Positions 3,388 through 60,940 of a stretch of DNA of 64,000 bases are shown piece by piece. The notes under the pieces are model-generated. The model saw only the letters and a list, made by a program, of their open reading frames with translations, did no database searches and was not told the origin of the DNA. The stretch's first letter is position 1. Each line of letters opens with the position of its first letter. This DNA comes from a virus (taxonomy: Duplodnaviria; Heunggongvirae; Uroviricota; Caudoviricetes), in the IMG/VR virus record IMGVR_UViG_3300035208_005614, positions 1-64,000 of that record; one strand, 5' to 3'. The position numbers and the translations under genes were made by a program.

Positions 3388-4545
3388 TTAGGAAAGAAAG
3401 ATATGAGATGAAGACGTTTTTTCTTTTCTTTTATGATCTATAAGGAAAAAAGCCTGTTTTGGCTTCTCATAATCAGCTTTAATCGAAATTGCAAAGGAAT
3501 TAAACCCTATAACGCTTCCATTACAAATAAAGTTTCCTCCATCTCTAAGTTGATGAAAATGACCAAAAACATCAAGATCCGCGTGTTGAACTTTATTCCA
3601 TTGAGCAATAGCTTTATTTACCGAGATATATATACCTGACATACCTCCATTATATTTCATAAAATGACCATGGTGAAAACGAATTGTCAATCCCCCTACA
3701 TCAATATAAGAGTGATAACTTGTAGGAATTATAAACTTTACACGAGGATTATCTTTAAAAGCATTTGCTAAGACGTGATATAAAACATATTCATAAGAAT
3801 GGCCTGCTTCTGTAGATGGTCGTATCTTCTGGGTATCTCTGGCATGATTTCCAGAATGACAAGGCAAAACGATATTAACATCTGTATTATCTAACAAATA
3901 ATTGATTCCTGCCTCTAAAACACCCTTTACTTCGAGCATTTCTTCGATTGGCGACATGGAATTGTTCTCAAGCGACTCTTCTCTCAAATGACCATTTATC
4001 ATATCTCCTAGCATCGCTAGAACAAGATTGTTGATTTGGCTGTGATGTTTGTAAATTATGATGAGTTTCGCGAGATTTTTGAAGAAAAACTCTAATCTTG
4101 TCTTCGCGATCTTAGGATTGTATTCATTTTTACCATTAACATTGTCAGATTTCACAGTTTCCGCATAATGTATGTCAGAAAGTACCGCAACTGCCGTGAC
4201 CTCCCCGCTAGGATCAGATTTTATTGATTTAATCGTATAAGTATTCGCTGTTCCTACTATTTTAAATGCTTCAATAATAGCTTCAGCATCTGCAAGTTTA
4301 CTACAAACCAAGTCATATTTCTTTTGAGTATGCTTTCCTTCATTCTCTAAGTTGCCCAAAACAACATCTCTTTCTATCTCCTTTTCAGGCGAAAGGTGTT
4401 TATTTTGGGCATTTTTGCGCACAGGAGGAAGATGGAGGGTATTTCTTCCCATTTTTCTGACAGCGTCTGCCGTTTGACCTGTCATTTTTCCTATATCTTT
4501 ATAGGATTTTTTCCCCCAATATCTTTTTATTGTTGATGTAATCAT
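3388..4545 (-). CDS. Calcineurin-like metallophosphoesterase with an N-terminal HTH-like segment
   Basis: Ordered phosphoesterase motifs LSDIHY (DxH), MLGDMING (GDxxxxG), GNHARD (GNH) and GHFHQ (GHxH). The N-terminal 40 aa (KSYKDIGKMTGQTADAVRKMGR) look like a helix-turn-helix. Confidence 0.65.
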   Translation of the reverse strand: MITSTIKRYWGKKSYKDIGKMTGQTADAVRKMGRNTLHLPPVRKNAQNKHLSPEKEIERDVVLGNLENEGKHTQKKYDLVCSKLADAEAIIEAFKIVGTANTYTIKSIKSDPSGEVTAVAVLSDIHYAETVKSDNVNGKNEYNPKIAKTRLEFFFKNLAKLIIIYKHHSQINNLVLAMLGDMINGHLREESLENNSMSPIEEMLEVKGVLEAGINYLLDNTDVNIVLPCHSGNHARDTQKIRPSTEAGHSYEYVLYHVLANAFKDNPRVKFIIPTSYHSYIDVGGLTIRFHHGHFMKYNGGMSGIYISVNKAIAQWNKVQHADLDVFGHFHQLRDGGNFICNGSVIGFNSFAISIKADYEKPKQAFFLIDHKRKEKTSSSHIFLS

Positions 4546-4561
4546 ATTAATTTATTAAAAA

Positions 4562-4592
4562 AACAGCAAAGTTTTCTACTTTGCTGTTTTTT
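4562..4592. terminator. Bidirectional hairpin terminator
   Basis: CAGCAAAGT-TTTCT-ACTTTGCTG with an A-run upstream and a T-run downstream, so a U-tract follows it on either strand. It overlaps the last codons of the 4576-4893 gene. Confidence 0.55.
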
Positions 4593-4893
4593 GCTCCAAA
4601 AATGCTTTTAATATCATTGAATAATTTGCAATATCATCAAGGGTATCCCCAATTTTTTCGTCAAGAACTCTGGCATCATCATCCAATAAAGTTGCTAATC
4701 TAGATATCTTATCGCACATTCTAACCACAATCCCTTTTTCTACAGAACAAATTCCTAAAAATTCAACTAATTCAAATGCCCTAAAAGCACTATCCTTTTT
4801 GTCTCCTGTATAATCCTTATTTTTTCTTTCCATCAAAGCAATATTATTTGCATAATACTCTTTTATTTTCTTTAAAAATGTTTTTTTATTCAT
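4576..4893 (-). CDS. MazG-like (all-alpha) nucleotide pyrophosphohydrolase family protein, tentative
   Basis: 105 aa. RAFELVEFLG and LDEKIGDTLDDIANY fit the ExxE ... E.GDxL pattern of MazG/HisE-type NTP pyrophosphatases. Confidence 0.4.
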   Translation of the reverse strand: MNKKTFLKKIKEYYANNIALMERKNKDYTGDKKDSAFRAFELVEFLGICSVEKGIVVRMCDKISRLATLLDDDARVLDEKIGDTLDDIANYSMILKAFLEQKTAK

Positions 4894-6896: not shown

Positions 6897-7769
6897 TTAA
6901 TAATGACCGACTTTCATTTTTATTGCTTGTAATTTTAACACTTCTTTTTTAAATTGTCCAAAGTTTTTAAAATATCGATAAAGATATCTTCCCTCATTCT
7001 CAGGCAATAACTTTTTAACTCTTAATTCTTTACCTTGCTCCAATCCTCTAAGACCAACTTCTATCAAATGCTCTCTCCATTCCTTTTTAGTCTTAAATTG
7101 AGGATTGTATGTAGAAAAATTTGGTTGCATCTTAAGATAATCTCTACAATATTTAATATAACTTCCATATCTATAATGCATTATTGTTATAATACCTCCC
7201 CCATATTCCTTTTTAATATCTGTAAGAGTAGGAGTTTTACCTAATTTTTTACCTAAACTAATTATTTTGGTCATGATTTGGAGATCACAAATACCATAAG
7301 CATTTTGTCCTTCCTTTGCTTTCTTTTTACCTTTTCTATTTCCTGCTTCTCTATTCTTCTTTTTAAAACCGTAACCATTACTATTTCCTAATTGCATTTT
7401 CCCTTCTTTTTGTAATTGAGTGATAACTTCTGATTGTCTTAATCTAAGTTTCTTTGATTTCAAAGCTGTCTGAGTAAACAAACCGAATTTTGCTCTATAT
7501 TGTTCTCCTGTCATTCCGTGCTTGACTGAAAAGTGTGTAGGTAGTTGTTCAAACCATTTACCACACTCATGACATTGCAATTTACCTGTCTCCGAATCTT
7601 CTGCAAGAACTCCAACAAAACCGAATCCTGTTGAGACTGGCATAAAAGGTGGTTCCCATTTTTTAATATTAATAAAACCTGACTCGGCTTGATCGTAAGC
7701 TATCTTATTCTGTTTTTTATGTGGATATACTGGCATGTTTTTTAATAATGAGTTAAGTCGAGGGGGCAA
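6897..7769 (-). CDS. Ros/MucR-family zinc-finger transcriptional regulator-like protein with a C-terminal extension
   Basis: KLQCHECGKWFEQLPTHFSVKHGMTGEQYRAKFGL closely matches the Ros/MucR CxxC...HxxxxH finger and the following EYRxKWGL motif. About 150 extra C-terminal residues are unassigned. Confidence 0.7.
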   Translation of the reverse strand: MPPRLNSLLKNMPVYPHKKQNKIAYDQAESGFINIKKWEPPFMPVSTGFGFVGVLAEDSETGKLQCHECGKWFEQLPTHFSVKHGMTGEQYRAKFGLFTQTALKSKKLRLRQSEVITQLQKEGKMQLGNSNGYGFKKKNREAGNRKGKKKAKEGQNAYGICDLQIMTKIISLGKKLGKTPTLTDIKKEYGGGIITIMHYRYGSYIKYCRDYLKMQPNFSTYNPQFKTKKEWREHLIEVGLRGLEQGKELRVKKLLPENEGRYLYRYFKNFGQFKKEVLKLQAIKMKVGHY

Positions 7770-7927
7770 GATTCGACTTGCAGTCTTAATATGTTTCGTC
7801 TAGAACTCCACATATCCACCTGACTTAATAATTTCTCGTCCAACAAACTTGGCGCTGTTGACATGAGTGGACGTACATTTCCACGTTAGTTTAGATACTT
7901 CATGTATCGACACCCTCGACTTAACTC
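7750..7927 (-). ncRNA. Structured leader or candidate ncRNA closed by a 15-bp perfect inverted repeat
   Basis: GAGTTAAGTCGAGGG (7750-7764) and CCCTCGACTTAACTC (7913-7927) bracket about 150 nt containing nested hairpins (GCAAG/CTTGC, GTGGA/TCCAC, CGTCCA/TGGACG). It is GC-enriched relative to its surroundings. It lies downstream of the 8044-8071 promoter and upstream of the MucR-like gene. Confidence 0.4.
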
Positions 7928-8043
7928 ACTATTTTTTTTAATTAACTTAATAAATAGGATTTACGGGGGGTTTAACAAAAATGATTTCTCATTAATTCGA
8001 GTATTGTTTATTCCTCGAAGCCCCCACAATTCCTACTACTTTA

Positions 8044-8071
8044 AGTATACTCCTATCTTTTTACTTGTCAA
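8044..8071 (-). promoter_or_regulatory. Sigma-70-like promoter TTGACA-N16-TATACT (consensus copy 1)
   Basis: Minus-strand reading cTTGACAagtaaaaagataggagTATACTta. Identical to the 20828 copy. The -35 box lies inside an ACTTGnCAAGT palindrome. Confidence 0.65.
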
Positions 8072-8095
8072 GTGAAAAGTCACTTGACAGACTCT

Positions 8096-9751
8096 TTACA
8101 TCATGTCGGGTTTATCTTTTGGTATTTCTGCCATAGCTACTTCTAGGGTTAGGAACATTCCTGCTCCACTAGAAGCATTTTCTAAGGCACATCTCTCTAC
8201 TTTCAATGGATCAATAATTCCACTTTCAATAAGATTATCAACAAAAACATTATTAAAGGCATCAAAACCGCCTCCATCTTCTTGATTTTTAACCTCATTT
8301 ACCACTTCCTCTCCATCTCCTAATCCACAGTTAATAGCAATGTGTTTTAAAGGTATCTCCATTGCTTTGGCAAGAATATCAAAACCTAGAAGCTCATCTA
8401 CCGTGTATTCACCCTCATTTTTGGCCTCTAAAACCCTCGTAGACGCATGAATTAATGAATATCCACCTCCTGGAACTATACCCTCCTCCAAAGCCGCTTT
8501 TACGGCATTTATAGCGTCTTCAACTTTTAGTTTAAGATACTTAGTTTCTGTGTCTGTTGAAGCTCCAACTTTGATTCTTGCAACACCACCAGAAAGTTTA
8601 GCAATTCTTTCCTCAACTTTAAGTTTGTCGTGCTTAGATTCGAGAGTTTCCATTTCTAATTTTGCGGTAGCAATACGCTCATCAATCTTAGTTTTATCTC
8701 CTTTCCCTCCGATAATTGTTGTCTTATCTTTTGTAGAAACAACTCTTTCGGCAGAACCTAGATGATCTAATCCCACTTTATCCATTGTCATACCTAAATC
8801 TTTTGATATAAATGTTGCACCAACTGTAATTGCTATATCTTCCAAATAATCTTTCTTTCTTAAACCGAATCCTGGAGCTTTAACTCCTAGAGTGATAAAT
8901 CCATTTTGGAATCTATTTGCAAGAACTGTTTGAAGAGCGTCTCCAACGATATCTTCAGCGATGATAACTAAATCTTGTTTCCCAGAGGCTTTTAATGCTT
9001 CCATGATCAAATAAACATCTTCAGCAGAACCGAGTTTCAAATCCGTAACTAAGATCGAAACATCTTTAACCACAGATTCTCCACGAGCTGGATCGGTCAT
9101 CATATATGGAGTTATAAAACCTTTATCTAATTCTAAACCTGAAGAAATTTCACTTGTAATTCCAACAACTGGACTTTCCTCCACTGTAATTATTGCATCT
9201 TGTCCTAATTCAGATACTGTCTTTGCAACAACTTTACCTATTTCTTCTGATTTCGAAGAAATGGTTGCAACACGAGTAATCTCTTCATTTCCATTTATTG
9301 GTTTAGAGATAGTTTTTAAGTAATCAACTGCAATCTTTGAAGCTTTATCTATACCAGATTTAACTCCAATAGAATTTACTTTTGCAGGTTTAAGAGAAAT
9401 CAATCTCAAAATCTTTGTCCATAAAGAACCTTTGATTAATTTCATTCCCTCAGTAGCAATAGCCTGATACAAAAGAATTGTGGTTTTTCTTCCATCTCCA
9501 GCGATATCATTTGTTTTTTGTGCTACTTCTTTTTCTAAATTTGCTCCAACATTCTGCATAGAATCTTTTAAAACAATCTCACGTGATATAGAACCGCCAT
9601 CTCCTGTTATTGTTGGTCCACCAAAACCACGATCAAAAACTACATTACGCCCCCTTGGACCTATTGCGGGTTTTATAGAATCACCAACTGCGTCTATACC
9701 GACTTTTAATTCCTTTCTTGCTTCCTCTCCAAATAAAATTCTTTTTGCCAT
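8096..9751 (-). CDS. groEL: Chaperonin GroEL (Cpn60)
   Basis: 551 aa. AKRILFGEEAR...GPRGRNVV..GDGTTT-like region...AVKAALEEGIVPGGG... The C-terminus ends in MM. Collinear with GroEL over its full length. Confidence 0.9.
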   Translation of the reverse strand: MAKRILFGEEARKELKVGIDAVGDSIKPAIGPRGRNVVFDRGFGGPTITGDGGSISREIVLKDSMQNVGANLEKEVAQKTNDIAGDGRKTTILLYQAIATEGMKLIKGSLWTKILRLISLKPAKVNSIGVKSGIDKASKIAVDYLKTISKPINGNEEITRVATISSKSEEIGKVVAKTVSELGQDAIITVEESPVVGITSEISSGLELDKGFITPYMMTDPARGESVVKDVSILVTDLKLGSAEDVYLIMEALKASGKQDLVIIAEDIVGDALQTVLANRFQNGFITLGVKAPGFGLRKKDYLEDIAITVGATFISKDLGMTMDKVGLDHLGSAERVVSTKDKTTIIGGKGDKTKIDERIATAKLEMETLESKHDKLKVEERIAKLSGGVARIKVGASTDTETKYLKLKVEDAINAVKAALEEGIVPGGGYSLIHASTRVLEAKNEGEYTVDELLGFDILAKAMEIPLKHIAINCGLGDGEEVVNEVKNQEDGGGFDAFNNVFVDNLIESGIIDPLKVERCALENASSGAGMFLTLEVAMAEIPKDKPDMM

Positions 9752-11672: not shown

Positions 11673-11700
11673 GATTATTTTTATTATTGATACTCTGTAA

Positions 11701-11728
11701 GTATACTCCTTTCTCCTTACTTGTCAAG
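11701..11728 (-). promoter_or_regulatory. Sigma-70-like promoter TTGACA-N16-TATACT (copy 2)
   Basis: Minus-strand reading cTTGACAagtaaggagaaaggagTATACTtac, between the Fic stop and the HTH gene start. Confidence 0.65.
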
Positions 11729-16367: not shown

Positions 16368-16395
16368 AGTATACTCCTTTCAAAATACTTGTCAA
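16368..16395 (-). promoter_or_regulatory. Sigma-70-like promoter TTGACA-N16-TATACT (copy 3, leftward)
   Basis: Minus-strand reading cTTGACAagtattttgaaaggagTATACTtgg, in the divergent region. Confidence 0.65.
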
Positions 16396-16782: not shown

Positions 16783-16836
16783 TTCTATGTTGTAACATAG
16801 AAATGTCTTTGACATATTAAGAAAAAGGAATATTAT
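16783..16836 (+). promoter_or_regulatory. Operator-like palindrome plus sigma-70-like promoter upstream of the replication genes
   Basis: Palindrome TTCTATGTT-GT-AACATAGAA (16783-16802) followed by TTGACA-N16-TATTAT (16809-16836). Confidence 0.5.
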
Positions 16837-16875
16837 TGTCGTATATGGGAAAATTTGATACCAAAATTGTTGAAC

Positions 16876-16945
16876 AAAAAGGTATATCCATAGCATCGAA
16901 AGATGCCGAGTCGTCAATCACTCGCCCATGTGGATATACCTTTTT
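16876..16945 (+). other. Long hairpin (15-bp stem, about 40-nt loop) followed by a T-run, in the leader of the replication initiator gene
   Basis: AAAAAGGTATATCCA (16876-16890) pairs with TGGATATACCTTTTT (16931-16945). A CATC-GAAA-GATG mini-hairpin sits in the loop. Could be an attenuator or an origin-associated stem-loop. Confidence 0.4.
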
Positions 16946-16979
16946 GCTTCGCAATTTTATTAATTAATGGGAAAAAACA

Positions 16980-17858
16980 ATGAAATATAATATCAATATA
17001 AATCAAAAAGCATTGAGCGAATTAAGCGACGATATGGACGTCTTAGATGCCTCTATTTTGGTTTATATTAATGATATTTGTGGCAGTGGCAGTGAAAAAA
17101 TACACAGTAGAAGATTTAAGGATGAAAACGGTATATTTTGGACATGGGTTGATCTACAAACCTTATGCGACGATATGCCTCTTCTTCGTATTGGATCTAG
17201 ATCAGCTATTTCAAATAGAATCAAAAGAATAGAAAAAAACGGTTTTATTTCTACTTTAACAAGAATGGTGGATCGTCATTCTCGTTTATTTATAAAGCTA
17301 AATGACAAGGTAGATAATCTCACGTTCGTGGAAAAGAACGTGTCAGTTGTTGACACGTTCTCCAAAACAAACGTGTCGAGGGGGGACACGTTCTGTTTGG
17401 AGAACGAGCACGTTCTCCTAGAAGAACGTGTGGAGGATTCACACGTTCTCCAAAACGCACGTATTATAGATACTAGTAATACAATACATAATAATACTAC
17501 TTACTCTGTGCAAAAAGGGAGGACGAGGAAAAAAGACATTCCTATGGATTCTGATAGGTTGTCTCTATTCAACGACTTCTGGGCAGCGTTTCCGATTAAG
17601 AAAGGGAAACAACTTGCGGAAGCACGTTGGAAAGAAATTGATATTGCCATAATGCCAATGATTATCGAGGATGTAAAAAAGAAGAGCATAAAGGATGATC
17701 AATGGATTAGAGGGTACGCTCCCCATCCCCCAACTTATTTAAATCAAAAACGATGGACAGACGAAATTGATCCCCCCAAGACGACAGCCCCTAAACTAGC
17801 TCCAGGAAATACTTATACAAAAGGAAAAATGAAAGATGTCGAAGAATTAATTGTTTAA
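16980..17858 (+). CDS. Putative replication initiator/replisome organiser carrying an internal origin-like palindrome array
   Basis: 292-aa ORF immediately upstream of the DnaC-like and primase-helicase genes. No closely recognisable domain. It contains a DNA palindrome array (see the repeat feature), as in the lambda O gene and its origin. Confidence 0.5.
   Translation: MKYNININQKALSELSDDMDVLDASILVYINDICGSGSEKIHSRRFKDENGIFWTWVDLQTLCDDMPLLRIGSRSAISNRIKRIEKNGFISTLTRMVDRHSRLFIKLNDKVDNLTFVEKNVSVVDTFSKTNVSRGDTFCLENEHVLLEERVEDSHVLQNARIIDTSNTIHNNTTYSVQKGRTRKKDIPMDSDRLSLFNDFWAAFPIKKGKQLAEARWKEIDIAIMPMIIEDVKKKSIKDDQWIRGYAPHPPTYLNQKRWTDEIDPPKTTAPKLAPGNTYTKGKMKDVEELIV
17321..17448. repeat. Array of five palindromes built on GAACGTG/CACGTTC half-sites (origin-like iterons)
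   Basis: CACGTTC-8-GAACGTG (17321-41), GAACGTGTC-8-GACACGTTC (17335-60), AACGTGTC-7-GACACGTT (17370-92), GGAGAACG-AGCA-CGTTCTCC (17399-418) and GAACGTGTG-7-CACACGTTC (17424-48), all inside the 16980-17858 reading frame. Confidence 0.7.
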
Positions 17859-20646: not shown

Positions 20647-20838
20647 ATGTACGAAGACAATGAATGTCCTACAGGTAAAAAGATTTATGATAAAAAAGGA
20701 GCAACAACATTAAAAAATAAAACGATGGAATTGCATCATATTGAAATGCGAATATATCCTTGCCCGAGATGTAATGGGTGGCACCTAACAAGCGTCGGGA
20801 AGCATAAACCGTTTAGACACTGTAAACTTGACAAGTAA
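20647..20838 (+). CDS. Small Cys-containing (zinc-ribbon-like) protein
   Basis: 63 aa with CPTGK...CPRCNGWH. The stop codon overlaps the -35 box of the 20828 promoter. Confidence 0.4.
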   Translation: MYEDNECPTGKKIYDKKGATTLKNKTMELHHIEMRIYPCPRCNGWHLTSVGKHKPFRHCKLDK

Positions 20839-20855
20839 AAAGATAGGAGTATACT
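20828..20855 (+). promoter_or_regulatory. Sigma-70-like promoter TTGACA-N16-TATACT (copy 4)
   Basis: cTTGACAagtaaaaagataggagTATACTtaa on the plus strand, identical to the 8044 copy. Confidence 0.65.
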
Positions 20856-20861
20856 TAAAAG

Positions 20862-21105
20862 ATAGTTGATTGATTTCTGGGGTTTGGCGTGTCATCTAGA
20901 TTGCTTCCGCATCGCTAAGGTGGCCCGTCAAAGGAAGTCCTCAGACGTCAATCAATTATCTGTGCGAATCGGTAGTTGTGTCCGTGATTTGAAGGTCCAG
21001 TAACTCTCTGCCACGCTTCGCGCTGGTTTAAAGTCTGGCGTAAGGAAATCGACCCGCCTTTGAATCGTGGGCTCAACTACTGAAAATTATTAGTTTAAAA
21101 GAAAA
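20862..21105 (+). ncRNA. GC-enriched structured leader or candidate ncRNA (about 245 nt)
   Basis: No ORF. Markedly GC-richer than the flanking sequence (GGGGTTTGGCGTGTC ... GCCACGCTTCGCGCTGG ... CGACCCGCC), with many short GC stems. Transcribed from the 20828 promoter ahead of the 21111 gene. Confidence 0.4.
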
Positions 21106-21110
21106 TAACA

Positions 21111-21896
21111 ATGGAAATAAAAATATTTGGAAAGAGTTTGTTTAAGTTTAGTAAAAATGAAGCATTATTTGTGGGTATTAATTCATCAATGAAAGAAAGT
21201 AAATATCTTCCTGATTTTTACGGCAGATCATTTGGTGGAGGAAGTATGAGTATTGAAAATGTCATATCTTCATCTTTTGCAACAGAATTAGCTGGAACAG
21301 GGGCAGTTACAAAATATGCAGAGACAAAAAAGGAAGAACCTGCTAAAGAAAAAGAAAAAATAACACCAAAAGGAGTTTATAATTTACAAATGTTGAATGA
21401 TAAGAGTTTTAAATTAAAAGTTGAACCGACCTACCTTGACAACTTAATTCAGTCTTTCAAGGATAAATTGTCTCTAATTAAATCTGAAGAATATGATATG
21501 AGAAATGGTACTCAAGAAATTGCAAGTATTCTTATGAGACTAGAAAATAGAAAAAAGTATAGCGATCATAAGAAAATGTTTGAGGAATTCCCATATACTA
21601 CAACAAATAAGATAAATGAATTGGTTAAGGAACACGATCATTTAAAGATAGGACAAGTTGCAGAATTTATGGCTGATATGCCAAAAGAGGCAATTGATGT
21701 TATGAAGAAATATAATAAAGAAGTTGATTTGCTTTGTAAAAAGCAAGCAGTATTCTATATTATTGCAAACAAAGAAGATTTCAAGAAAACAGAGAAGAGA
21801 AGAGATCCAATACTTTTGGCACAATCACCATTCGGTCACTTCTGGCAGATACTTGGAGCTTGGGATGAAGAAATGATGTTAATCGAAGAATTATAA
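21111..21896 (+). CDS. Hypothetical protein
   Basis: 261-aa ORF. Confidence 0.5.
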   Translation: MEIKIFGKSLFKFSKNEALFVGINSSMKESKYLPDFYGRSFGGGSMSIENVISSSFATELAGTGAVTKYAETKKEEPAKEKEKITPKGVYNLQMLNDKSFKLKVEPTYLDNLIQSFKDKLSLIKSEEYDMRNGTQEIASILMRLENRKKYSDHKKMFEEFPYTTTNKINELVKEHDHLKIGQVAEFMADMPKEAIDVMKKYNKEVDLLCKKQAVFYIIANKEDFKKTEKRRDPILLAQSPFGHFWQILGAWDEEMMLIEEL

Positions 21897-23605: not shown

Positions 23606-24119
23606 AAAAATATATGCTTTGCTTTTAGAATCAAGCAAGACTTATTTTTTGAGTGTGCAATCTGCCTATTCTTTAGAGGATGCATTTCTTTTAGCCAAGA
23701 TAGAGTTCGCAAAACTTAATCCTTTATCAAAAGGAGAAAATTCATTGGAAGGAGCAAAGATAGGTTTATTCTCGATCAAAACTGTAGAGGAACTTAACTC
23801 ACAAAATTCAGATAAAATTACTTCAGTTGATAGTGCTATTCAAACACAAGAGGAAACGTCTTCTGGAAGAACAGTAAAGATCGGTCAGGTAGACCCTGAA
23901 GACTTTCTAAAAATATTGGAAGAGGGTTTTCTTCCAAAAACAAGGAAGAGTGATATTAAAAAGATAATTCCTAAGACGCCTCCAGAAGAAGAACCTAAAA
24001 CCAAGAAGAATAAATTAATGTTAGAAATCATCAAAAGTAAAGATAAAAGAATCCTAGAAATGAATAAGGAGCTTTTTACTCCTGAAGAAATCAAATATAT
24101 TGAAAAACAGATGGAATAA
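23535..24119 (+). CDS. Hypothetical protein
   Basis: 194-aa ORF. Confidence 0.45.
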   Translation: MENNVRKLNLNKKMLNQGEKTINKKIYALLLESSKTYFLSVQSAYSLEDAFLLAKIEFAKLNPLSKGENSLEGAKIGLFSIKTVEELNSQNSDKITSVDSAIQTQEETSSGRTVKIGQVDPEDFLKILEEGFLPKTRKSDIKKIIPKTPPEEEPKTKKNKLMLEIIKSKDKRILEMNKELFTPEEIKYIEKQME

Positions 24120-24139
24120 TCTGTCAAGGTATTATTTAC

Positions 24140-24167
24140 TTGACAAGTAAAATAGAAGGAGTATACT
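24140..24167 (+). promoter_or_regulatory. Sigma-70-like promoter TTGACA-N16-TATACT (copy 5)
   Basis: cTTGACAagtaaaatagaaggagTATACTtac on the plus strand, upstream of 24232. Confidence 0.65.
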
Positions 24168-52467: not shown

Positions 52468-55400
52468 TTAAAAGAATCCTGCTATCTTGCCTACAGGTTT
52501 TGAATCTCGACCTTGTCCTACAAGTTTAACACTAGTACCTCTTCCTACAGGTTGCATCTTGTTTCCCTGTGCAACTGGTTTACTATCTGAAGGTGAAAAT
52601 CTGAATGATTCTGAAACAATTGATTCTGAGATGTTTATTTGATCTAAAACACTTATATCATAATAAAAACCTAATCTTATATCAGAATCAATCTCAATTT
52701 CATCAAAAACATTAATATCTCCAAGTTGTCCGTTATTTTCAACATTCTCTGAAATTTCTATATTTTCTGCTACTTGTATTCCAGTAAGAAGTAAATCTAC
52801 CAATTCAATATCCGATATTGAGATTGAATCGTATATATTTATATCTCCAAGTTGTGGGTTAGAAAGGATTACATTTTCTGAAATATTTATACCGTCAGAG
52901 ACGTTTATACCTCCAAGTAGAGGGTTCTCCTGATTATCGGTATCCAAAACATTGACAGAATCTGAGACATTAATTCCTCCCAAATAAGAATTACCCAAGA
53001 TAATATTTTCTGAAATCTCAACCAAATCTTTTACTGAGATCTCTTGTTCTCCTGTATCTTGGAAATTTTCAGAAATATTTATCGTATCAAAAATGTCGAT
53101 TCCTCCTAATTGAGAATTTTCTACAGTTACTTCTTCAGAGATCTCAATTGAATCGTATTTGTCTATACCTGACTCCAAATAATCAACTATTCCGATATCA
53201 TCAGAAACATTAATATCTCCTAGCTGAGAATTTTCTAAAGTAACCGATTCAAGAATATCAATAAGATCAAATACAGAGACTTCTTGTTCTCCTGTATCTT
53301 GGAAGTTTTCAGATATATTGATTATGTCGTTGACAGAAACATTCAATTCTCCTGTATTTGTAATATTTTCTGAAATATTTACATTATCAACAATATTTAT
53401 ATCTCCTAACTGAGAATTATTTATATTTAAATATTCAGATATGTTTACAATTTCTATAATATTTATAGATCCTAATTGCGAGTTACTTAATGCTACATTA
53501 TCTGAAATATTTATAGAATCAGTAGCAAAAATATTTCCAAGTTGAGTTCTTATGACCAAATCTTCTGAAATATTTATAGAATCAGTAGTAGAGATATCTC
53601 CTAACTTGGAGTTATCCAATACGACTTCTTCTGTAATATGAATCACATCGTCAACAATAATAATGAGACTTCCTCCACCTGTGCCGAAATCAACAATATC
53701 TACTTCATCTGAAACGTTGATTCCTCCTAGTTGAGAATTTGAAACGATGACTGACTCTGAAATATTTACTGTATCTATTACTGAAGTGCTTAATATCCCC
53801 GCGTCTGTAAAGTTTTCTGAAATATTTATGTTGTCTACAACAGAAATATCCCCTAACTGTCCAGTTAGATTTACATTTTCAGATATATCTATTGTGTCGT
53901 AAACACTTATTCCTCCTAGATTTGAGTTAGAAACGGTAACTGATTCAGAAATGTTGACTGAGTCTGAAACGTTAATACCTCCTAGATTTGAGTTAGAAAC
54001 GGTAACTGATTCAGAGATATTTACTGAGTCTGAGACGTTGATACCTCCTAGATTTGAGTTAGAAACTGTAACTGATTCAGTGATGTTTATTGAATCGTAT
54101 ACTGAAATATTCTCTTCTCCCATATCTACGACATTTTCTGATATATTGATGGTGTCAAAAACTGAAGTATTCAATACTCCTGTGTCTGTAAAGTTTTCAG
54201 AAATATTTATCGTGTCATAGATATTAATATTTCCTAGTTGTGAGTTTAGAACAATTACTGATTCTGAGATATTGATGGTATCAAATACTGAAGTATTCAA
54301 CACTCCTGTATCCGTAAAGTTTTCTGAAATATTTACTGTATCCGAAAGATTAATATCTCCTAACTGAGAGTTTGAAATGGTAATTGTTTCTGAGATATTT
54401 ACTGTGTCAGAAACATCAATGTTACCCAACTGAGAGTTTGAAATAGTAACTGACTCAGAAATGTCCACTGTGTCATAAACATTTATATCACCTAATTGAG
54501 AGTTTGAAATAACAACTGACTCTGAAATATTTATTGTGTCAAAAACTGAGATAGAACTGAATCCTGTATCTGTAAAGTTTTCTGAGATATTTATTGAATC
54601 TGAGACATTAATATCTCCAAGATTTATAGAGGAATTGGTTGATTCTGAAACATTAATTGAATCATAAACATTAATAGTTCCTAGTTGAGTATTCGTGACT
54701 ATAAATGATTCTGAGATATTTACTATATCTATTATATTAATTTCTCCAAGAGTAGTTGAAGAAATAATTGATTCTGAAATATTTATTGTGTCTGATACGT
54801 TTATGTTTCCTAGTTGAGAATTTGAAATTACAACTGACTCTGAAATATTTATGGTATCTATTACTGAGGTACTTAATACACCTGTATCTGTAAAGTTTTC
54901 TGAAATATTTATTGAATCTGAAACATTTATGTCTCCTAGTTGAGAGTTTGAAACAGTAGTTAATTCTGAGATATTTATAGAATCATATACATTAATTTCT
55001 CCTAATTGAGAGTTTGTAAGTGTAACTGATTCAGATATGTTTATAGAATCATATACGTTAATTCCTCCTAGCTGAGAATTTGAAACAACAACCGATTCAG
55101 ATATATTAACTAAATCAACAACTGAAATATTTGAGACTCCAGTATCTGTAACATTTTCTGAGATGTTTATTGAATCTACAACGGAAATATCTCCTAACTG
55201 ACCAGTTAGACTGATACTTTCAGAGAAATTTATTGAATCAAAAACGTTGATATCACCTAACTGAGAGATTGAAACTATGACTGATTCAGAGATATCTACT
55301 AAGTCTGAAACGTTGATACCTCCTAGATTTGAGTTAGAAACTGTAACTGATTCAGAGATATTTACTGAATCCGAAACGTTGATGTTTCCTAGACTTGAAT

Positions 55401-58400
55401 TAGAAACACTTATTGATTCAGACATATTTATTGAATCAAAGACATTTATTCCTCCTAACTGAGTATTTGTAAGTGTAACTGATTCAGAAATATTAATAGA
55501 ATCGTAAACAGAAAGAGAGAATAAACCTGAATCTACAAAATTCTCAGAAATATTTATTGTGTCAAAAACATTAATGTCTCCTAATTGAGAATTTGAAATG
55601 GTAACTGACTCTGAAATATTTATAGTGTCATAAAGATTTATATAAGAAAGTATAGAATCAGTTAAATCTTCTGAGATATTTATTGAATCATATATATTTA
55701 TTCCTCCTAACTGAGCGCTTGTAAGAGTAACTGATTCAGAAATGTTTACTGAATCATAAAGATTTACATCTCCAAGAGGAGATCTAACTACAACTGACTC
55801 AGAGACATTAATTGAATCAGATAAAACATCGTCACCATATATTCCAAAAGCAAAACCTGGTGTATCTCTTGTCCAAGTCCCTCCAGAATAATATGCAGAA
55901 TCTCCCACTGCAGTTGACTGATCAATTGGAGCAAAAGTCTGGAAACCATAATCTCCAGTTGTTGACTCAACGGTCATGTAATAATGACCTGGAGCTAGAG
56001 AAATTATATTAGCTCCAGAAAATGTGAAGGTTGTGTAAGGACCTGGGAATGACCAATTAAGCGTATTAGCCTCTATTTGGTCTGATACGGCAAGTAATGT
56101 GCCTGGGATAGAATTAACCCCGTAGGTGCCAGAATCTGTGTAAATACGGGCTGTTAGATAACCTGTGCGTCCTCCATTTCTATACAAATAACGACTTGTA
56201 GTTCTTACTCTTGTTGTTTGACTGATTGTAAATGTTTCCCCAAAGGCATAATCTGTATAACCTATTCCACTATTTGTAAGATTTAAAGCATAATAATCAA
56301 GTAAGGTTGTGGTACTAGTTATATACAAAAATCCTTCATCCACTATATTTTCAGAAATATTTATATCATCTCCAACATCTATTGATAAATCATTAATAGG
56401 CGGAAGAACTGAAACACTTTCAGATATATTAATATCTTCTCTTGGATGTCTATCTTCAGCAACATAAAAAATAAGATCGTCATTTGCACCTATTCCAGGT
56501 AAACCAACCCAATTACCTCCTAATTTAACAGATGCATTACCTGGATGAGTTGGAGAGCCCAAATCACTGTAAATTAATAAGGTTCCACTTGTCGGAGTAG
56601 ACTCAATTGTTATTACATAATATTGACTTGCTGTAAGTGCTATTTTATTTATTCCCGAGAAATTAAAATAGATTATTCCATTTGAAGCAGGAATCGTTGA
56701 AATGTCTATTGAATCAGAAGTAGCAAGTAATGTATCTGGTATTGAATCATAACCAAACGTTCCTGTCATCGTGTAGATCTTTGAAACTACAGTTCCTGTT
56801 GCTCCATTACCATTTAGATAGAATCCAGAAAAATCTAAGGTTCTATTTGCTTTACATAGGAATGATTGTCCGAAGAATTGAAAACCGTAGAATGTACTAT
56901 TTGCATGAGTATAATCATAACTATCTATGTAATTAAGATTTCCAATGTCTCCAAGTTGTCCTGTGTTTGTTACACTTTCAGAGATATTTATTACATCATA
57001 ACTAATAACTATTAAAGGATTAACTTGGTATGATTCAGAAATATTTACTGTGTCATATGTATTTGCATATAAGAATGGATTTTCTATAGTAACGGATTCA
57101 GATATATTAACGACATCGTTTAATATTGGATGACCGTGAGCAATAAAGACAGTATTATAATTTTGTAACGCAGTCCAAACACCTCCACTCTGAGAAGCAG
57201 AATTACCGTTTGTAAAATTCTCTGGTGTATTAGCTGAGACTACTGGGTTGTTAGATGCTCCTCCACCTGGAAAATCAAAAACTAAGAAATAATCTGTATT
57301 TTCACTTAATGAAATTCTATTACTTCCTGAAAATGGGAAATTAAAATACGCACCACTTCCGCTATATGGAGGTAAAGTAGAAGCTTCAACTGAATCTGAT
57401 GTAGCCAAAGCACTCCCTGTAGGAACAGCATCAACTCCATATGTTCCCGTTGAAGCATATATTTCGACATAAATAGGTCCTGAAGGAGCGTTAAATTTAG
57501 CCAAAAGAACATCAACACTATCCAAGATCATTGAAGTTGTGCTCTTTGTCCCCTGTGCCCACGCATGATTAGCATACAAACCTCCATACCATGCGCCAGA
57601 TACAGTAGTAAAACTATCGTAAATAACGACATTTTTAATTATGTCTCCTAACTGTCCTGTATCGTTGGGAACATCTGAAATATTTAATGTATCGTAAAGA
57701 TTAATTCCTCCTAACTGAGTACTTGAAAGAGTCTTTGATTCAGAAATATTTATTGTATCTACGACAGAAACAGCTAGGGGTTCTTCAGAATTTTCACTTT
57801 CAGATATGTTTATGGAATCAAAAATAGATACGCTTAATGGTTCTTCTACATTAATACTTTCTGATACATTTATTGAGTCATATACATTTATTCCTCCTAA
57901 CTGAGCGTTTGTAAGAGTAACCGATTCAGAAATGTTTATTGAATCATAAAGATTTATATCTCCAAGTTGAGATTCTGTGATTGTTTTTGACTCTGATATA
58001 TTTACTGAATCATATAGATTTATTCCGCCTAGATTTGGATTAGAAATTGTAACTGACTCAGAGATGTTTACTGAATCATATAGACTTATATTTACGTCAA
58101 GAGTTTCTGTAATACTTTCTGATATATCTATTGAATCATATATATTTATTCCTCCTAGATCTGGATTAGAAATAGTAACTGATTCAGATATATTTACTGA
58201 GTCATCTTTATTTATTCCTCCGAGTTGAGAATTTGTAACAATTACATCTTCTGAAGTATCTATTGAATCATATAAATTAATACTTCCTAGTTGCCCTGTT
58301 CTAGTTATAGATTCAGAAATATTTATATCGTCATGAACATTTATTCCGCCAAGTTGCCCTGTTCTAGTTATAGATTCTGATATATTTATGTCATCGTGAA

Positions 58401-60510
58401 CACTAAGAGGTAGTATGGGACTTGCTGAAATGGTTACGTCAGCATCTTCTGTAATATTAATAGTTTCATATTTAAGAAATTGGGTAGAGATAATTTCAAC
58501 TTGTGGAACACCGTTATAAACTGCAAAATAAAGATCGTCAGTATAACCAGTCCATGTTGTGCCGTTGGAAGAACCACATCTATTTCCTCCTGCTCCAGTT
58601 CCTCCACCTCCTATTTGTAAATAATTACCTCCATCTCCCCCTGGATAGTAAAAAACTAAACAATAATAAGTTGCCGCCGACATGAGATATCTACCCGCTA
58701 CTTCAAAATCAAAAGAGACTTCTTGAAAAGCAGAAGTTGAAATAGTTTGTACATTTACCCCTTTAGAGGTAGCAAGAGCAGCACCAGTTGGTTTACCTGA
58801 AGTCGTTCCGTAAGTTCCCGTGTGCGCGTATAATTTAGCATAGATAAAACCTGTAGGGTTAGTGTACCTTTTAAAATAACCTATTCCTTTCCCTAAAATA
58901 CCAGCATTGGTATTTGTAAAAGATTGACCTGAATATGGAGCGGCACTATAAATAGTTAAATAACCTGGTGCAGAAAGATAATTTTCAATTAAATAAGTTA
59001 CATAAAGAGGTTCAGCAGCAACATTTAAATCATCATGAACTTGAATTTCAAGATAATGAATTACCGTTGTAGATTCTGATATATTAATTAATTGGTTTTG
59101 ATATGTTTCTCTAGCGTTAAGAACTTTTAATTCAACCCAACCTTCATTAATAAAAATACTTTCTATTCTACTTACGTACTCTATAGGTGTAGTTAAAGCA
59201 ACAGTAATACTCTCTGAAATATTAACTTTTTCAGGTATAAAAACTTGTCTTTGGACGAGATCTTCTATTTTTATTCTATCAAAAACCGAAAGGGGCAAAG
59301 AAATTGCGACTTTAACATCTTCCCTTATTTTTGGAGATTCAAAATTATATCCTTGCCATTTAGTTGCTGTCCCCACCGTTAATCCAGTAGGTGCTTCCTG
59401 AATACCTATATCATCGTGAACATAGATATTTATATTATTAGGATCGTTTATTTCTATAGAATTGAATACATGAGATGTCCCAGAATTCCAACAATATAAT
59501 CCTCCAAGAACCCACATATTTCTTTCTGTTACTCCAGAAACAGATCTAACAAGAACTCCATCAAGCCAGAAGGTAATATTCCCGTTTAGATCGTAAATAA
59601 TTTCATAAGTTCTTTCTACTGTTCCGTATCCTGAACCTATCGCAATTTGTGTTGTTCCTGCCTGTGTAATCAAAACACCTGAAGATTCCCATCTATATAA
59701 GAAAGAATAACTATTTGTAGGACCTGAAAAACCGATGTTATAATAAGAACCTGCTGTCGAGGTAAATTTGGCAATAAATTTAATAGACATTCCAGGATTA
59801 ATCAATGGAACTCTATAATTTATTGAAGATCTAGGACCACTTCCCGTTAATCCAGTTAGAGTCAAAAGACCCCCAGAAGCCGCCCATTGAGCTGGAAAAG
59901 TGGGTTCTGCCCAGTACATAAGATCAAGAACATTTAACTTAGTATTACCGTTAAATGGTTCAAACCATGGTGTTGCTGGTGGAAAAACATCAACAGAATC
60001 AACATTCATGATCATTCCTGAGTCATAAACGTTACCGAATTGGACTTTAAGATCTGAATCTAAGATTGCAGTAAGTGATCTATAAACAAGAGCTCCATCA
60101 ATAAAAAAGTTTGCAAATCCATTAGGTAACCATTCTATTTCAAAATTGTGTTGTGTAGCGTTAGCTACTATTCCAGTATTAAAATAAGTGTTTACAGTTC
60201 CATTGTAAATTTGGATATAAATATATGTTGCTCTATCCCAAGTCTGAGCAAAGGCGATAGTATCTGTTGGACCTACAAAACCTAAAGCGTGTCCGCTCAA
60301 TGCAGTATCTGGACAGTTTGCTCTAAAAGAAAGAGTTGTACCAGGACCAAAAGTATCATTGCTTCTAACTATACAAGTGGGGCTTCCTGCTCCTCCACCA
60401 GTAAGTTTAAGCATTCCACTAGCAATAGTAACGTTACCCGCGTATGTCCATTCCGCGGTGTTTATAGGTAAACTATCAAATGTGTCTATTAATCTCGGTA
60501 CGATCGACAT
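52468..60510 (-). CDS. Giant 2680-aa repeat protein: four paralogous lectin-like domains plus more than 50 copies of a 22-aa repeat
   Basis: Uninterrupted 8 kb ORF. The 22-aa repeat unit approximates SNSQLGDINVYDSINISESVTV. Four about 150-aa paralogous domains (..TGTYG...P.G.ALATSD.I...T......F.F.G.N.I.L....YY..) lie in the N-terminal half. Probable receptor-binding fibre. Confidence 0.7.
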   Translation of the reverse strand: MSIVPRLIDTFDSLPINTAEWTYAGNVTIASGMLKLTGGGAGSPTCIVRSNDTFGPGTTLSFRANCPDTALSGHALGFVGPTDTIAFAQTWDRATYIYIQIYNGTVNTYFNTGIVANATQHNFEIEWLPNGFANFFIDGALVYRSLTAILDSDLKVQFGNVYDSGMIMNVDSVDVFPPATPWFEPFNGNTKLNVLDLMYWAEPTFPAQWAASGGLLTLTGLTGSGPRSSINYRVPLINPGMSIKFIAKFTSTAGSYYNIGFSGPTNSYSFLYRWESSGVLITQAGTTQIAIGSGYGTVERTYEIIYDLNGNITFWLDGVLVRSVSGVTERNMWVLGGLYCWNSGTSHVFNSIEINDPNNINIYVHDDIGIQEAPTGLTVGTATKWQGYNFESPKIREDVKVAISLPLSVFDRIKIEDLVQRQVFIPEKVNISESITVALTTPIEYVSRIESIFINEGWVELKVLNARETYQNQLINISESTTVIHYLEIQVHDDLNVAAEPLYVTYLIENYLSAPGYLTIYSAAPYSGQSFTNTNAGILGKGIGYFKRYTNPTGFIYAKLYAHTGTYGTTSGKPTGAALATSKGVNVQTISTSAFQEVSFDFEVAGRYLMSAATYYCLVFYYPGGDGGNYLQIGGGGTGAGGNRCGSSNGTTWTGYTDDLYFAVYNGVPQVEIISTQFLKYETINITEDADVTISASPILPLSVHDDINISESITRTGQLGGINVHDDINISESITRTGQLGSINLYDSIDTSEDVIVTNSQLGGINKDDSVNISESVTISNPDLGGINIYDSIDISESITETLDVNISLYDSVNISESVTISNPNLGGINLYDSVNISESKTITESQLGDINLYDSINISESVTLTNAQLGGINVYDSINVSESINVEEPLSVSIFDSINISESENSEEPLAVSVVDTINISESKTLSSTQLGGINLYDTLNISDVPNDTGQLGDIIKNVVIYDSFTTVSGAWYGGLYANHAWAQGTKSTTSMILDSVDVLLAKFNAPSGPIYVEIYASTGTYGVDAVPTGSALATSDSVEASTLPPYSGSGAYFNFPFSGSNRISLSENTDYFLVFDFPGGGASNNPVVSANTPENFTNGNSASQSGGVWTALQNYNTVFIAHGHPILNDVVNISESVTIENPFLYANTYDTVNISESYQVNPLIVISYDVINISESVTNTGQLGDIGNLNYIDSYDYTHANSTFYGFQFFGQSFLCKANRTLDFSGFYLNGNGATGTVVSKIYTMTGTFGYDSIPDTLLATSDSIDISTIPASNGIIYFNFSGINKIALTASQYYVITIESTPTSGTLLIYSDLGSPTHPGNASVKLGGNWVGLPGIGANDDLIFYVAEDRHPREDINISESVSVLPPINDLSIDVGDDINISENIVDEGFLYITSTTTLLDYYALNLTNSGIGYTDYAFGETFTISQTTRVRTTSRYLYRNGGRTGYLTARIYTDSGTYGVNSIPGTLLAVSDQIEANTLNWSFPGPYTTFTFSGANIISLAPGHYYMTVESTTGDYGFQTFAPIDQSTAVGDSAYYSGGTWTRDTPGFAFGIYGDDVLSDSINVSESVVVRSPLGDVNLYDSVNISESVTLTSAQLGGINIYDSINISEDLTDSILSYINLYDTINISESVTISNSQLGDINVFDTINISENFVDSGLFSLSVYDSINISESVTLTNTQLGGINVFDSINMSESISVSNSSLGNINVSDSVNISESVTVSNSNLGGINVSDLVDISESVIVSISQLGDINVFDSINFSESISLTGQLGDISVVDSINISENVTDTGVSNISVVDLVNISESVVVSNSQLGGINVYDSINISESVTLTNSQLGEINVYDSINISELTTVSNSQLGDINVSDSINISENFTDTGVLSTSVIDTINISESVVISNSQLGNINVSDTINISESIISSTTLGEINIIDIVNISESFIVTNTQLGTINVYDSINVSESTNSSINLGDINVSDSINISENFTDTGFSSISVFDTINISESVVISNSQLGDINVYDTVDISESVTISNSQLGNIDVSDTVNISETITISNSQLGDINLSDTVNISENFTDTGVLNTSVFDTINISESVIVLNSQLGNINIYDTINISENFTDTGVLNTSVFDTINISENVVDMGEENISVYDSINITESVTVSNSNLGGINVSDSVNISESVTVSNSNLGGINVSDSVNISESVTVSNSNLGGISVYDTIDISENVNLTGQLGDISVVDNINISENFTDAGILSTSVIDTVNISESVIVSNSQLGGINVSDEVDIVDFGTGGGSLIIIVDDVIHITEEVVLDNSKLGDISTTDSINISEDLVIRTQLGNIFATDSINISDNVALSNSQLGSINIIEIVNISEYLNINNSQLGDINIVDNVNISENITNTGELNVSVNDIINISENFQDTGEQEVSVFDLIDILESVTLENSQLGDINVSDDIGIVDYLESGIDKYDSIEISEEVTVENSQLGGIDIFDTINISENFQDTGEQEISVKDLVEISENIILGNSYLGGINVSDSVNVLDTDNQENPLLGGINVSDGINISENVILSNPQLGDINIYDSISISDIELVDLLLTGIQVAENIEISENVENNGQLGDINVFDEIEIDSDIRLGFYYDISVLDQINISESIVSESFRFSPSDSKPVAQGNKMQPVGRGTSVKLVGQGRDSKPVGKIAGFF
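52560..55890. repeat. 66-bp-period coding tandem repeat, about 50 units
   Basis: Direct reading of the DNA shows reiterated ...AATATTTCAGA(G/A)ATATTTAT(T/G)GAATC... units. Shorter runs lie at about 57650-58450 and in the two downstream genes. Confidence 0.7.
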
Positions 60511-60554: not shown

Positions 60555-60586
60555 TACAAAAAAGACGCCTAGCGGCGTCTCTTTTG
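60555..60586. terminator. Hairpin terminator AGACGCC-TAGC-GGCGTCT flanked by A- and T-runs
   Basis: A 7-bp GC stem preceded by ACAAAAAA and followed by CTTTTG. Terminator-like on either strand. It lies about 50 nt upstream of the giant gene start. Confidence 0.5.
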
Positions 60587-60660
60587 AGAGATCTCTATAT
60601 ATATGGGGCTTAGGAAATGAAAATGAAACCTAACCCCGTCTAAGCATAGCATAGTGCAAA

Positions 60661-60691
60661 CGAAAAACCACCCAAAAACGAGTGGTTTTCG
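60661..60691 (-). terminator. AT-rich hairpin just downstream of the 60713-60940 gene
   Basis: CGAAAAACCAC ... GTGGTTTTCG, a 10-bp stem with a short U-run after it on the minus strand. Confidence 0.35.
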
Positions 60692-60712
60692 GTAGGTAAC
60701 CCCTAATCTTTC

Positions 60713-60940
60713 CTACTGGGGAGATTTTGGATCACCTCCTTTGTCTTTGAATTCGTCTGTGTGTTCTTTTGCCCATTTCTCTGCACCTCCGTTTTCGGCG
60801 TAATGTTTCAACAACCAATCTGGGTGGTAATAGAGTTCGTCATCTGAACAACAATGTTCGACGCGCGTGGTGTGGCGATTCAAAGGATTTGTTAAGGCGT
60901 CAATGATTTGAGCTACATTGTAGCCTTTTAGATCAAACAT
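60713..60940 (-). CDS. Hypothetical protein
   Basis: 75-aa ORF, GC-richer than average. Confidence 0.4.
   Translation of the reverse strand: MFDLKGYNVAQIIDALTNPLNRHTTRVEHCCSDDELYYHPDWLLKHYAENGGAEKWAKEHTDEFKDKGGDPKSPQ

Follow-up and report, generated by a model that had tools for sequence, protein, structure and literature searches.

A GC-rich leader behind an early promoter

The window, the whole 64,000-nt stretch analysed here, comes from an uncultured phage that probably infects Patescibacteria. In its replication module, between the helicase-primase and RecA, a 63-aa ORF stops at 20838 and the next gene begins with an ATG at 21111. The gap holds a GC-rich segment (leader 1; 20860-21085, +) behind a promoter that recurs on the opposite strand ahead of a second segment (leader 2). 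The features discussed below are:

7737-8040 (-), leader 2, structured (z = -7.55); belongs to a family that related phages conserve downstream of GroEL
8044-8071 (-), second, identical promoter copy (that of leader 2), an exact match to the leader 1 promoter
20828-20855 (+), early promoter of sigma-70 type, TTGACA-16-TATACT; family ACTTGACAAGTA..GGAGTATACTTA
20860-20961 (+), hairpin 1, 41 bp of coaxial helices with U.C 1x1 mismatches and an apical UUCC loop
20962-20968 (+), linker GUGCGAA, 7 nt, unpaired in the fold prediction
20969-21083 (+), hairpin 2, ~43 bp, with a 17-nt internal loop on the 3' side, CGUAAGGAAAUCGACCC (21039-21055)
21084-21110 (+), AU-rich unpaired spacer of 27 nt up to the start codon, without Shine-Dalgarno
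21111-21896 (+), gene 21111, which opens the transcription unit; its 261-aa product belongs to a large family of unassigned function and fold found on Patescibacteria-associated phage contigs
61595-63783 (-), array of 15 tRNA genes (ARAGORN)

The promoter of leader 1 is a near-consensus sigma-70-type element (TTGACA at 20828-20833, a 16-nt spacer and TATACT at 20850-20855; score 11/12). It lies within a 32-mer, TTGACAAGTAAAAAGATAGGAGTATACTTAAA, of which the window holds exactly two exact copies, at 20828-20859 (+) and 8040-8071 (-); the recurrence expected by chance was 0 matches in 100 shuffles. The original prediction had paired leader 1 through this promoter with a leader that it placed at 7750-8040. 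The identical copy is indeed there, with a 32-nt exact match, but it is not exclusive to the pair: at least five members of the promoter family ACTTGACAAGTA..GGAGTATACTTA occur in the window, including further ones at 11700-11727 (-), 16368-16395 (-) and 24140-24167 (+).

The promoter core, ACTTGACAAGT, is a near-palindrome in itself. At 8072-8096 (-) and 24115-24139 (+) the -35 element forms the 3' arm of an inverted repeat, TGTCAAG...CTTGACA; these repeats, which overlap the -35 of two promoter copies, could be the upstream gene's terminator or an operator. Two Logan contigs (L005 and L006) terminate exactly at the 32-mer (window ~20830), probably an assembly break at the repeat.

As predicted, the ~245 nt behind the 20828 promoter lack coding potential, the longest ORF within 20839-21110 having 45 codons. 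The four GC-rich runs originally quoted are all present, and GC content reaches 48.7% at 20860-21085 against 34.0% window-wide (99.86th percentile of equal-sized windows), a level matched within the window only by the tRNA array (~63 kb). ARAGORN places all 15 tRNAs of the window in that array and finds no tRNA or tmRNA at leader 1.

Folded as RNA, the + strand of 20856-21110 reaches an MFE of -96.4 kcal/mol, against -63.1 +/- 4.7 in 200 dinucleotide shuffles (z = -7.05), none of which attains this stability. The structured segment is 20860-21083. The opposite strand gives z = -1.8, and DNA parameters return the same asymmetry (z = -4.05 for the + strand, -1.4 for the - strand). G.U accounts for 14 of the 84 predicted pairs; among the 1x1 mismatches only U.C and U.U occur, and A.C is never seen. 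Thus, pairing is kept on the + strand only, which counts against a decaying DNA palindrome or cruciform.

The base of hairpin 1 (20860) lies 5 nt past the -10 hexamer, at the predicted, unmapped +1. This hairpin has a bulge, GGAAGU, on its 3' side (20927-20932), and similar purine-rich 3'-side loops occur in both hairpins (AAGGAAGU at 20925-20932 and AAGGAAAU at 21042-21049), which hints at a specific binding partner. The leader precedes gene 21111, as had been claimed, with the AU-rich spacer adjoining the ATG; these 27 nt are unpaired in the MFE and centroid structures alike, and the fold does not sequester the start codon. We identified no intrinsic terminator on the + strand within leader 1 or between it and the ATG. 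Shine-Dalgarno sequences are missing from nearly all genes of this phage. Judged by these models, leader 1 is a non-coding, strand-specific structured RNA leader whose transcription we infer from the promoter, and the idea of a promoter-driven, non-coding RNA element, strongly structured on the + strand specifically, holds up at that level.

Homologues, the second leader and a shared layout

Searched against Rfam 15, positions 20780-21160 match no family at gathering thresholds; at E<=10 the sole match there is a chance lncRNA hit on the promoter. Related loci likewise match no Rfam family at gathering thresholds or at E<=10. Distant-mode blastn and megablast with leader 1 found no match among INPHARED phages, and an exact-pattern scan of IMG/VR with a 22-mer of hairpin 1 gave 0 matches. 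We built one covariance model for each hairpin (R1 for hairpin 1, R2 for hairpin 2) and searched with them the window and 65 related loci, obtained through the 261-aa protein of gene 21111 (IMG/VR, JGI metagenomes and GTDB genomes; exact, 98% and 63-65% identical relatives) and through relatives of the helicase. Both match in the same phage species only, with a single copy in the window. At the depth searched, leader 1 is an orphan within one phage species. Four other assemblies contain copies that are either identical or partial.

One relative, L043, is 95.5% identical to the window over 5 kb at the nucleotide level. Its four substitutions in the stems of hairpin 1 (A-U to G-U, G-U to A-U, C-G to U-G and G-C to G-U) are one-sided and of wobble type, and break no pair, so that 41 of 41 pairs are held in both sequences. 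By our own rough estimate, four transitions would all be pairing-compatible at random with p ~0.06-0.13, and the substitutions support pairing through one-sided changes only. Compensatory covariation is lacking for leader 1 because no diverged homologue was found. Identity to L043 is ~96-98% in the RNA and ~93-100% in neighbouring genes, which is uninformative on relative conservation.

Gene 21111 belongs to a family of 993 proteins at E<1e-20, some of them in MAGs labelled Patescibacteria or Paceibacterota. The protein has no Pfam domain, no PDB sequence match and only a weak PHROG match, and its AlphaFold model (pLDDT 78.6) finds no fold match in PDB or BFVD. Together with the following genes up to RecA it forms the predicted transcription unit behind leader 1. 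At the ~20 orthologous loci inspected, the upstream gene abuts the gene 21111 orthologue or leaves a gap of 1-144 nt, except in L013; the leader 1 RNA is absent from these loci, the RNA in L013 being a different one. In the phages closest by primase-helicase (72-76% identity), the helicase-RecA interval lacks both the RNA and gene 21111. Thus, promoter, RNA and gene look like a lineage-specific inserted module and appear, from this comparison of loci, to have arrived together.

TIGR-Tas arrays, which our literature search places in phages and CPR bacteria, are built of tandem units (alternating repeats of 8-12 nt, or stem-loops, with box C/D motifs) and adjoin a Tas protein with a Nop domain (PMC12045711). 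A guide RNA of TIGR-Tas, bridge-RNA or omega-RNA type was considered for leader 1 and rejected: there is no repeat family at 20860-21090, most gene 21111 orthologues lack any RNA, and the neighbouring 261-aa protein has no Nop, IS110 or nuclease domain.

The original prediction also placed both leaders in one class of RNA, which is not borne out. Local alignment of the two sequences scores no better than shuffles, and all-against-all blastn is negative. At E<=10 neither R1 nor R2 has a match in 7737-8040; the model R3 has none in 20860-21085. The two leaders differ in architecture too: leader 1 consists of two rods, leader 2 of a three-way hairpin and, after it, a multibranch domain that is closed by a perfect stem of ~20 bp. 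What they share is the promoter family, a hairpin that starts at the predicted +1, a layout in two domains and, ahead of the ATG, an AU-rich spacer.

Unlike the orphan leader 1, to which it has no similarity by sequence or model, the leader 2 family is conserved with covariation. Homologues with the same promoter lie downstream of GroEL in two related phages (L060, 2783-3066, -; L061, 3293-3390, -), so that at least three related phages, this one included, have the family there. Between the window and L060, domain 1 keeps 24 of 24 pairs, seven of them through changes on both sides, and R3 scores 57 bits on L061 (E = 3e-13). A single-stranded element, UUUUGUUAAACC, is invariant. The family has no Rfam match, and an exact-pattern scan of IMG/VR with a conserved 25-mer gave 0 matches. 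By sequence comparison, leader 2 is a separate family unrelated to leader 1, and of the two it has the stronger claim to become a new family in Rfam. Homing-endonuclease-like genes lie near leader 2, their position differing in each phage.

Two relatives show the layout of leader 1 with unrelated sequences, namely a two-domain RNA, an AU-rich spacer and an ATG; in the window and L065 an early promoter stands ahead of it. In L065 (11243-11590, +), a promoter of the same family, GCTTGACAAGTAAAATGTGGGGTGTATAAT, lies in the helicase-RecA region and is followed by a ~300-nt two-domain RNA (z = -5.1), each domain closed by a 17-18-bp stem; a 79-aa gene comes next, its ATG preceded by an AAGGAGG motif. 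In L013 (3680-3975, +), a ~300-nt two-domain RNA (z = -9.2) lies directly upstream of the gene 21111 orthologue, with no obvious TTGACA-type promoter just upstream of it. At ~3869-3901 it contains a textbook hammerhead core, CUGAUGA-GGCGAAAGCC-GAAAC-ACGAAAGU-GUA (CUGAUGA-GGC GAAA GCC-GAAAC-AC GAAA GU-GUA). The hammerhead descriptor is loose, giving ~1.4 chance matches per shuffled data set, and Rfam reports nothing for this motif at E<=10. Because unrelated sequences share one layout, a generic structure-based role at the 5' end of early transcripts fits better than a specific aptamer.

Elsewhere in the window, a promoter at 16809-16836 (+; TTGACA-16-TATTAT) is followed by a hairpin with a 28-bp stem (16863-16958; z = -4.96) ahead of the initiator gene at 16980. 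The hairpin may serve as an operator or as a leader hairpin, or it may belong to the origin.

Proposed role and competing readings

The sequence family of leader 1 is new; its kind, a structured phage early leader, is already known. We tentatively prefer to read leader 1 as a cis-acting 5'-terminal module that would stabilize the operon mRNA and/or direct RNase III-type processing, a reading in which we infer transcription itself, 5'-end protection and RNase III processing. Transcription from 20828-20855 would make 20860-21083 the 5'-terminal part of an mRNA that runs from gene 21111 on to RecA, and the RNA would fold co-transcriptionally into two long, nearly continuous, irregular hairpins. 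Hairpin 1 begins at the predicted transcription start, and thus there would be no single-stranded 5' end; held inside a helix, the end may be shielded from 5'-end-dependent decay. The stems of 41 and 43 bp, which could be offered as RNase III-type processing sites, are interrupted by small loops only and exceed the ~20 bp of near-continuous dsRNA taken as a criterion from RNase III leaders. In this way the module would determine how stable and how abundant the downstream mRNA is, and the unpaired AU-rich start region would stay open to translation. No ligand would be sensed.

Early leaders with RNase III hairpins are found at site R0.3 of T7, ahead of gene 0.3, and in the lambda N leader. Leader 1 resembles them in its strong early host-type promoter, its long untranslated hairpin leader and its first gene with no terminator between. 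It has no sequence relationship to them, its hairpins are much longer (41-43 bp) and start at +1, and its cleavage is only predicted. The 5'-terminal stem-loop of ompA was reportedly found to stabilize its mRNA by Emory, Bouvet and Belasco in 1992. In stabilizers of this type the stem begins at or within ~2 nt of the transcript 5' end, as that of leader 1 would if transcription starts at the predicted +1, and both have an unpaired ribosome-loading region downstream; the stabilizers are short hairpins, whereas leader 1 spans ~225 nt with conserved-looking internal loops. Stabilization of bacterial mRNAs by 5'-terminal stem-loops, e.g. the ompA 5' UTR, is the subject of references listed in one review (PMC7509114). 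Against the cis-acting module stands the size of leader 1, since ~225 nt of GC-rich structure is far beyond what a 5' stabilizer needs; the similar purine-rich loops of the two hairpins, with their hint of a specific partner, count against it as well.

That same excess is what lends some weight to a somewhat less likely reading, a stand-alone or processed non-coding RNA acting in trans (a scaffold, a decoy or sponge, e.g. in anti-defence, or an oligomerizing RNA) that would be excised after transcription. Its size, GC content and stability are tRNA-like, it has a strong promoter of its own, and RNase III could excise the long stems. The motif AAGGAA(G/A)U recurs in the 3'-side loops of both hairpins, and GGAA could pair with the UUCC of the apical loop, but a 4-nt GGAA/UUCC loop complementarity is expected by chance. 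Phi29-type pRNA (RF00044) is similar in its two domains, early promoter and complementary bulge and hairpin loops; leader 1 has no Rfam match, and its phage is a ~100-kb primase-helicase phage, not phi29-like. No terminator separates leader 1 from gene 21111, target-like complementarity within the window is at chance level, and, with a single copy and no homologues, nothing shows selection on the loops.

It is fairly unlikely that leader 1 belongs to an undescribed class of promoter-flush two-domain RNAs that head early transcription units in Patescibacteria-associated phages and have a dedicated function beyond mRNA stability. The leader 2 family and the RNAs of L065 and L013, the latter with its hammerhead core, are further candidates for such a class; its function might be, for example, modification of the host RNA polymerase, an anti-defence decoy or assembly through loop-loop contacts. 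Nearly all that is known of Patescibacteria (CPR) phages comes from metagenomes, and the way they regulate their genes has yet to be explored. Judging by this locus and its relatives, early promoters in such phages may commonly be followed by large GC-rich structured RNAs that Rfam does not cover. Should these RNAs govern how stable early transcripts are or how they are processed, or act in trans, they would form a new group of RNA elements for experiments and annotation.

We consider it improbable that leader 1 is a cis-acting RNA that modifies RNA polymerase after initiation and confers resistance to termination, as HK022 putL and putR do. The put RNAs are ~70 nt long, and the two sites of one phage resemble each other. 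Here, too, there are promoter-proximal RNAs with two stem-loop domains behind two early promoters of one phage, both copies of the identical promoter precede a structured RNA, and a long operon lies downstream. However, leader 1 is ~3 times larger than a put RNA and the two leaders are mutually unrelated, and a scan from 21111 to the next promoter at 24140 revealed no convincing + strand terminator to override.

More doubtful again is an element acting at the DNA level (a single-strand priming signal or origin, a cruciform or a decayed, MITE-like mobile insertion of palindromic form), with transcription incidental. Leader 1 does sit in the replication module between helicase-primase and RecA, is insertion-like relative to related phages, and its + strand also folds as DNA, with the z of -4.05 given above. 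Its strand-specific, G.U-rich pairing free of A.C mismatches is unexpected for a neutrally decaying palindrome or cruciform; it occurs once in the window and is absent from all 65 loci outside the phage species. A much better origin candidate exists at 17321-17462, where iteron-like direct and inverted repeats (ACACGTTCTCC / GGAGAACGTGT) lie inside an HTH_36 initiator gene (16980-17858), an arrangement like that of the lambda ori inside gene O. On sequence grounds this cluster is the likely replication origin.

The hammerhead-like core upstream of the orthologous gene in L013 raises the question of whether leader 1 holds an unrecognized self-cleaving ribozyme that separates the mRNA from the leader. 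We regard this as very improbable: the CUGAUGA/GAAA core is missing from 20860-21110, no Rfam ribozyme model matches, and even the L013 motif stays below Rfam reporting thresholds.

Every bit as hard to credit is a leader that serves gene 21111 specifically as a riboswitch or other sensor of a ligand or protein, and the suggestion of a riboswitch-like leader in the original prediction fares poorly. The position in a 5' UTR and the high degree of structure would suit it. Yet Rfam returns no such match even at E<=10, and the fold consists of two rods, not a multi-helix junction with a conserved pocket. Nothing resembling the expression platform of a riboswitch can be seen: there is no terminator/antiterminator pair, the start region is always free, and the phage makes no use of Shine-Dalgarno sequences. 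The ~20 inspected gene 21111 orthologues do without the element; a riboswitch is unlikely because most of them have no upstream gap.

That leader 1 is a missed small protein gene with a non-ATG start is barely conceivable: the only ORF that overlaps it (20866-21003, 45 codons, TTG start) does exist, but all five L043 differences within it (four in stems, one in the linker) are non-synonymous (I>V, A>M, S>F, I>F), the four in stems keep RNA pairing, and the GC-rich composition is unlike that of the genes of this phage. The substitution pattern in L043 modestly favours RNA structure and disfavours coding. The gap should be annotated neither as a gene nor as a riboswitch, but as a candidate orphan structured RNA.

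Further features of the window and its relatives

Several features outside the locus deserve mention. In a window-wide folding scan based on GC-regressed MFE, the strongest GC-corrected signal outside the origin region lies at 4401-4600, at the 5' end of a 385-aa gene (residual z of -4.2 on the + strand and -2.9 on the - strand). A 2680-aa ORF at 52468-60510 (-) consists largely of degenerate 66-nt (22-aa) repeats, with spacings that are multiples of ~63-66 nt, and probably encodes a fibre or adhesin-like repeat protein. Next to it, at 60560-60940 (-), lies a small GC-richer ORF with a canonical AGGAGG Shine-Dalgarno, unlike other genes of the phage. Several terminator-like hairpins come after it, ahead of the 2680-aa gene, and it resembles a foreign cassette of moron type.

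Several primase-helicase homologues in related phages (P0143, P0152, P0156, P0158, P0175, P0186 and P0187) are ~300 aa longer and have intein or LAGLIDADG domains. Together with nearby NUMOD3, HNH and Endonuclease_7 genes, they suggest heavy traffic of homing elements in this phage group.
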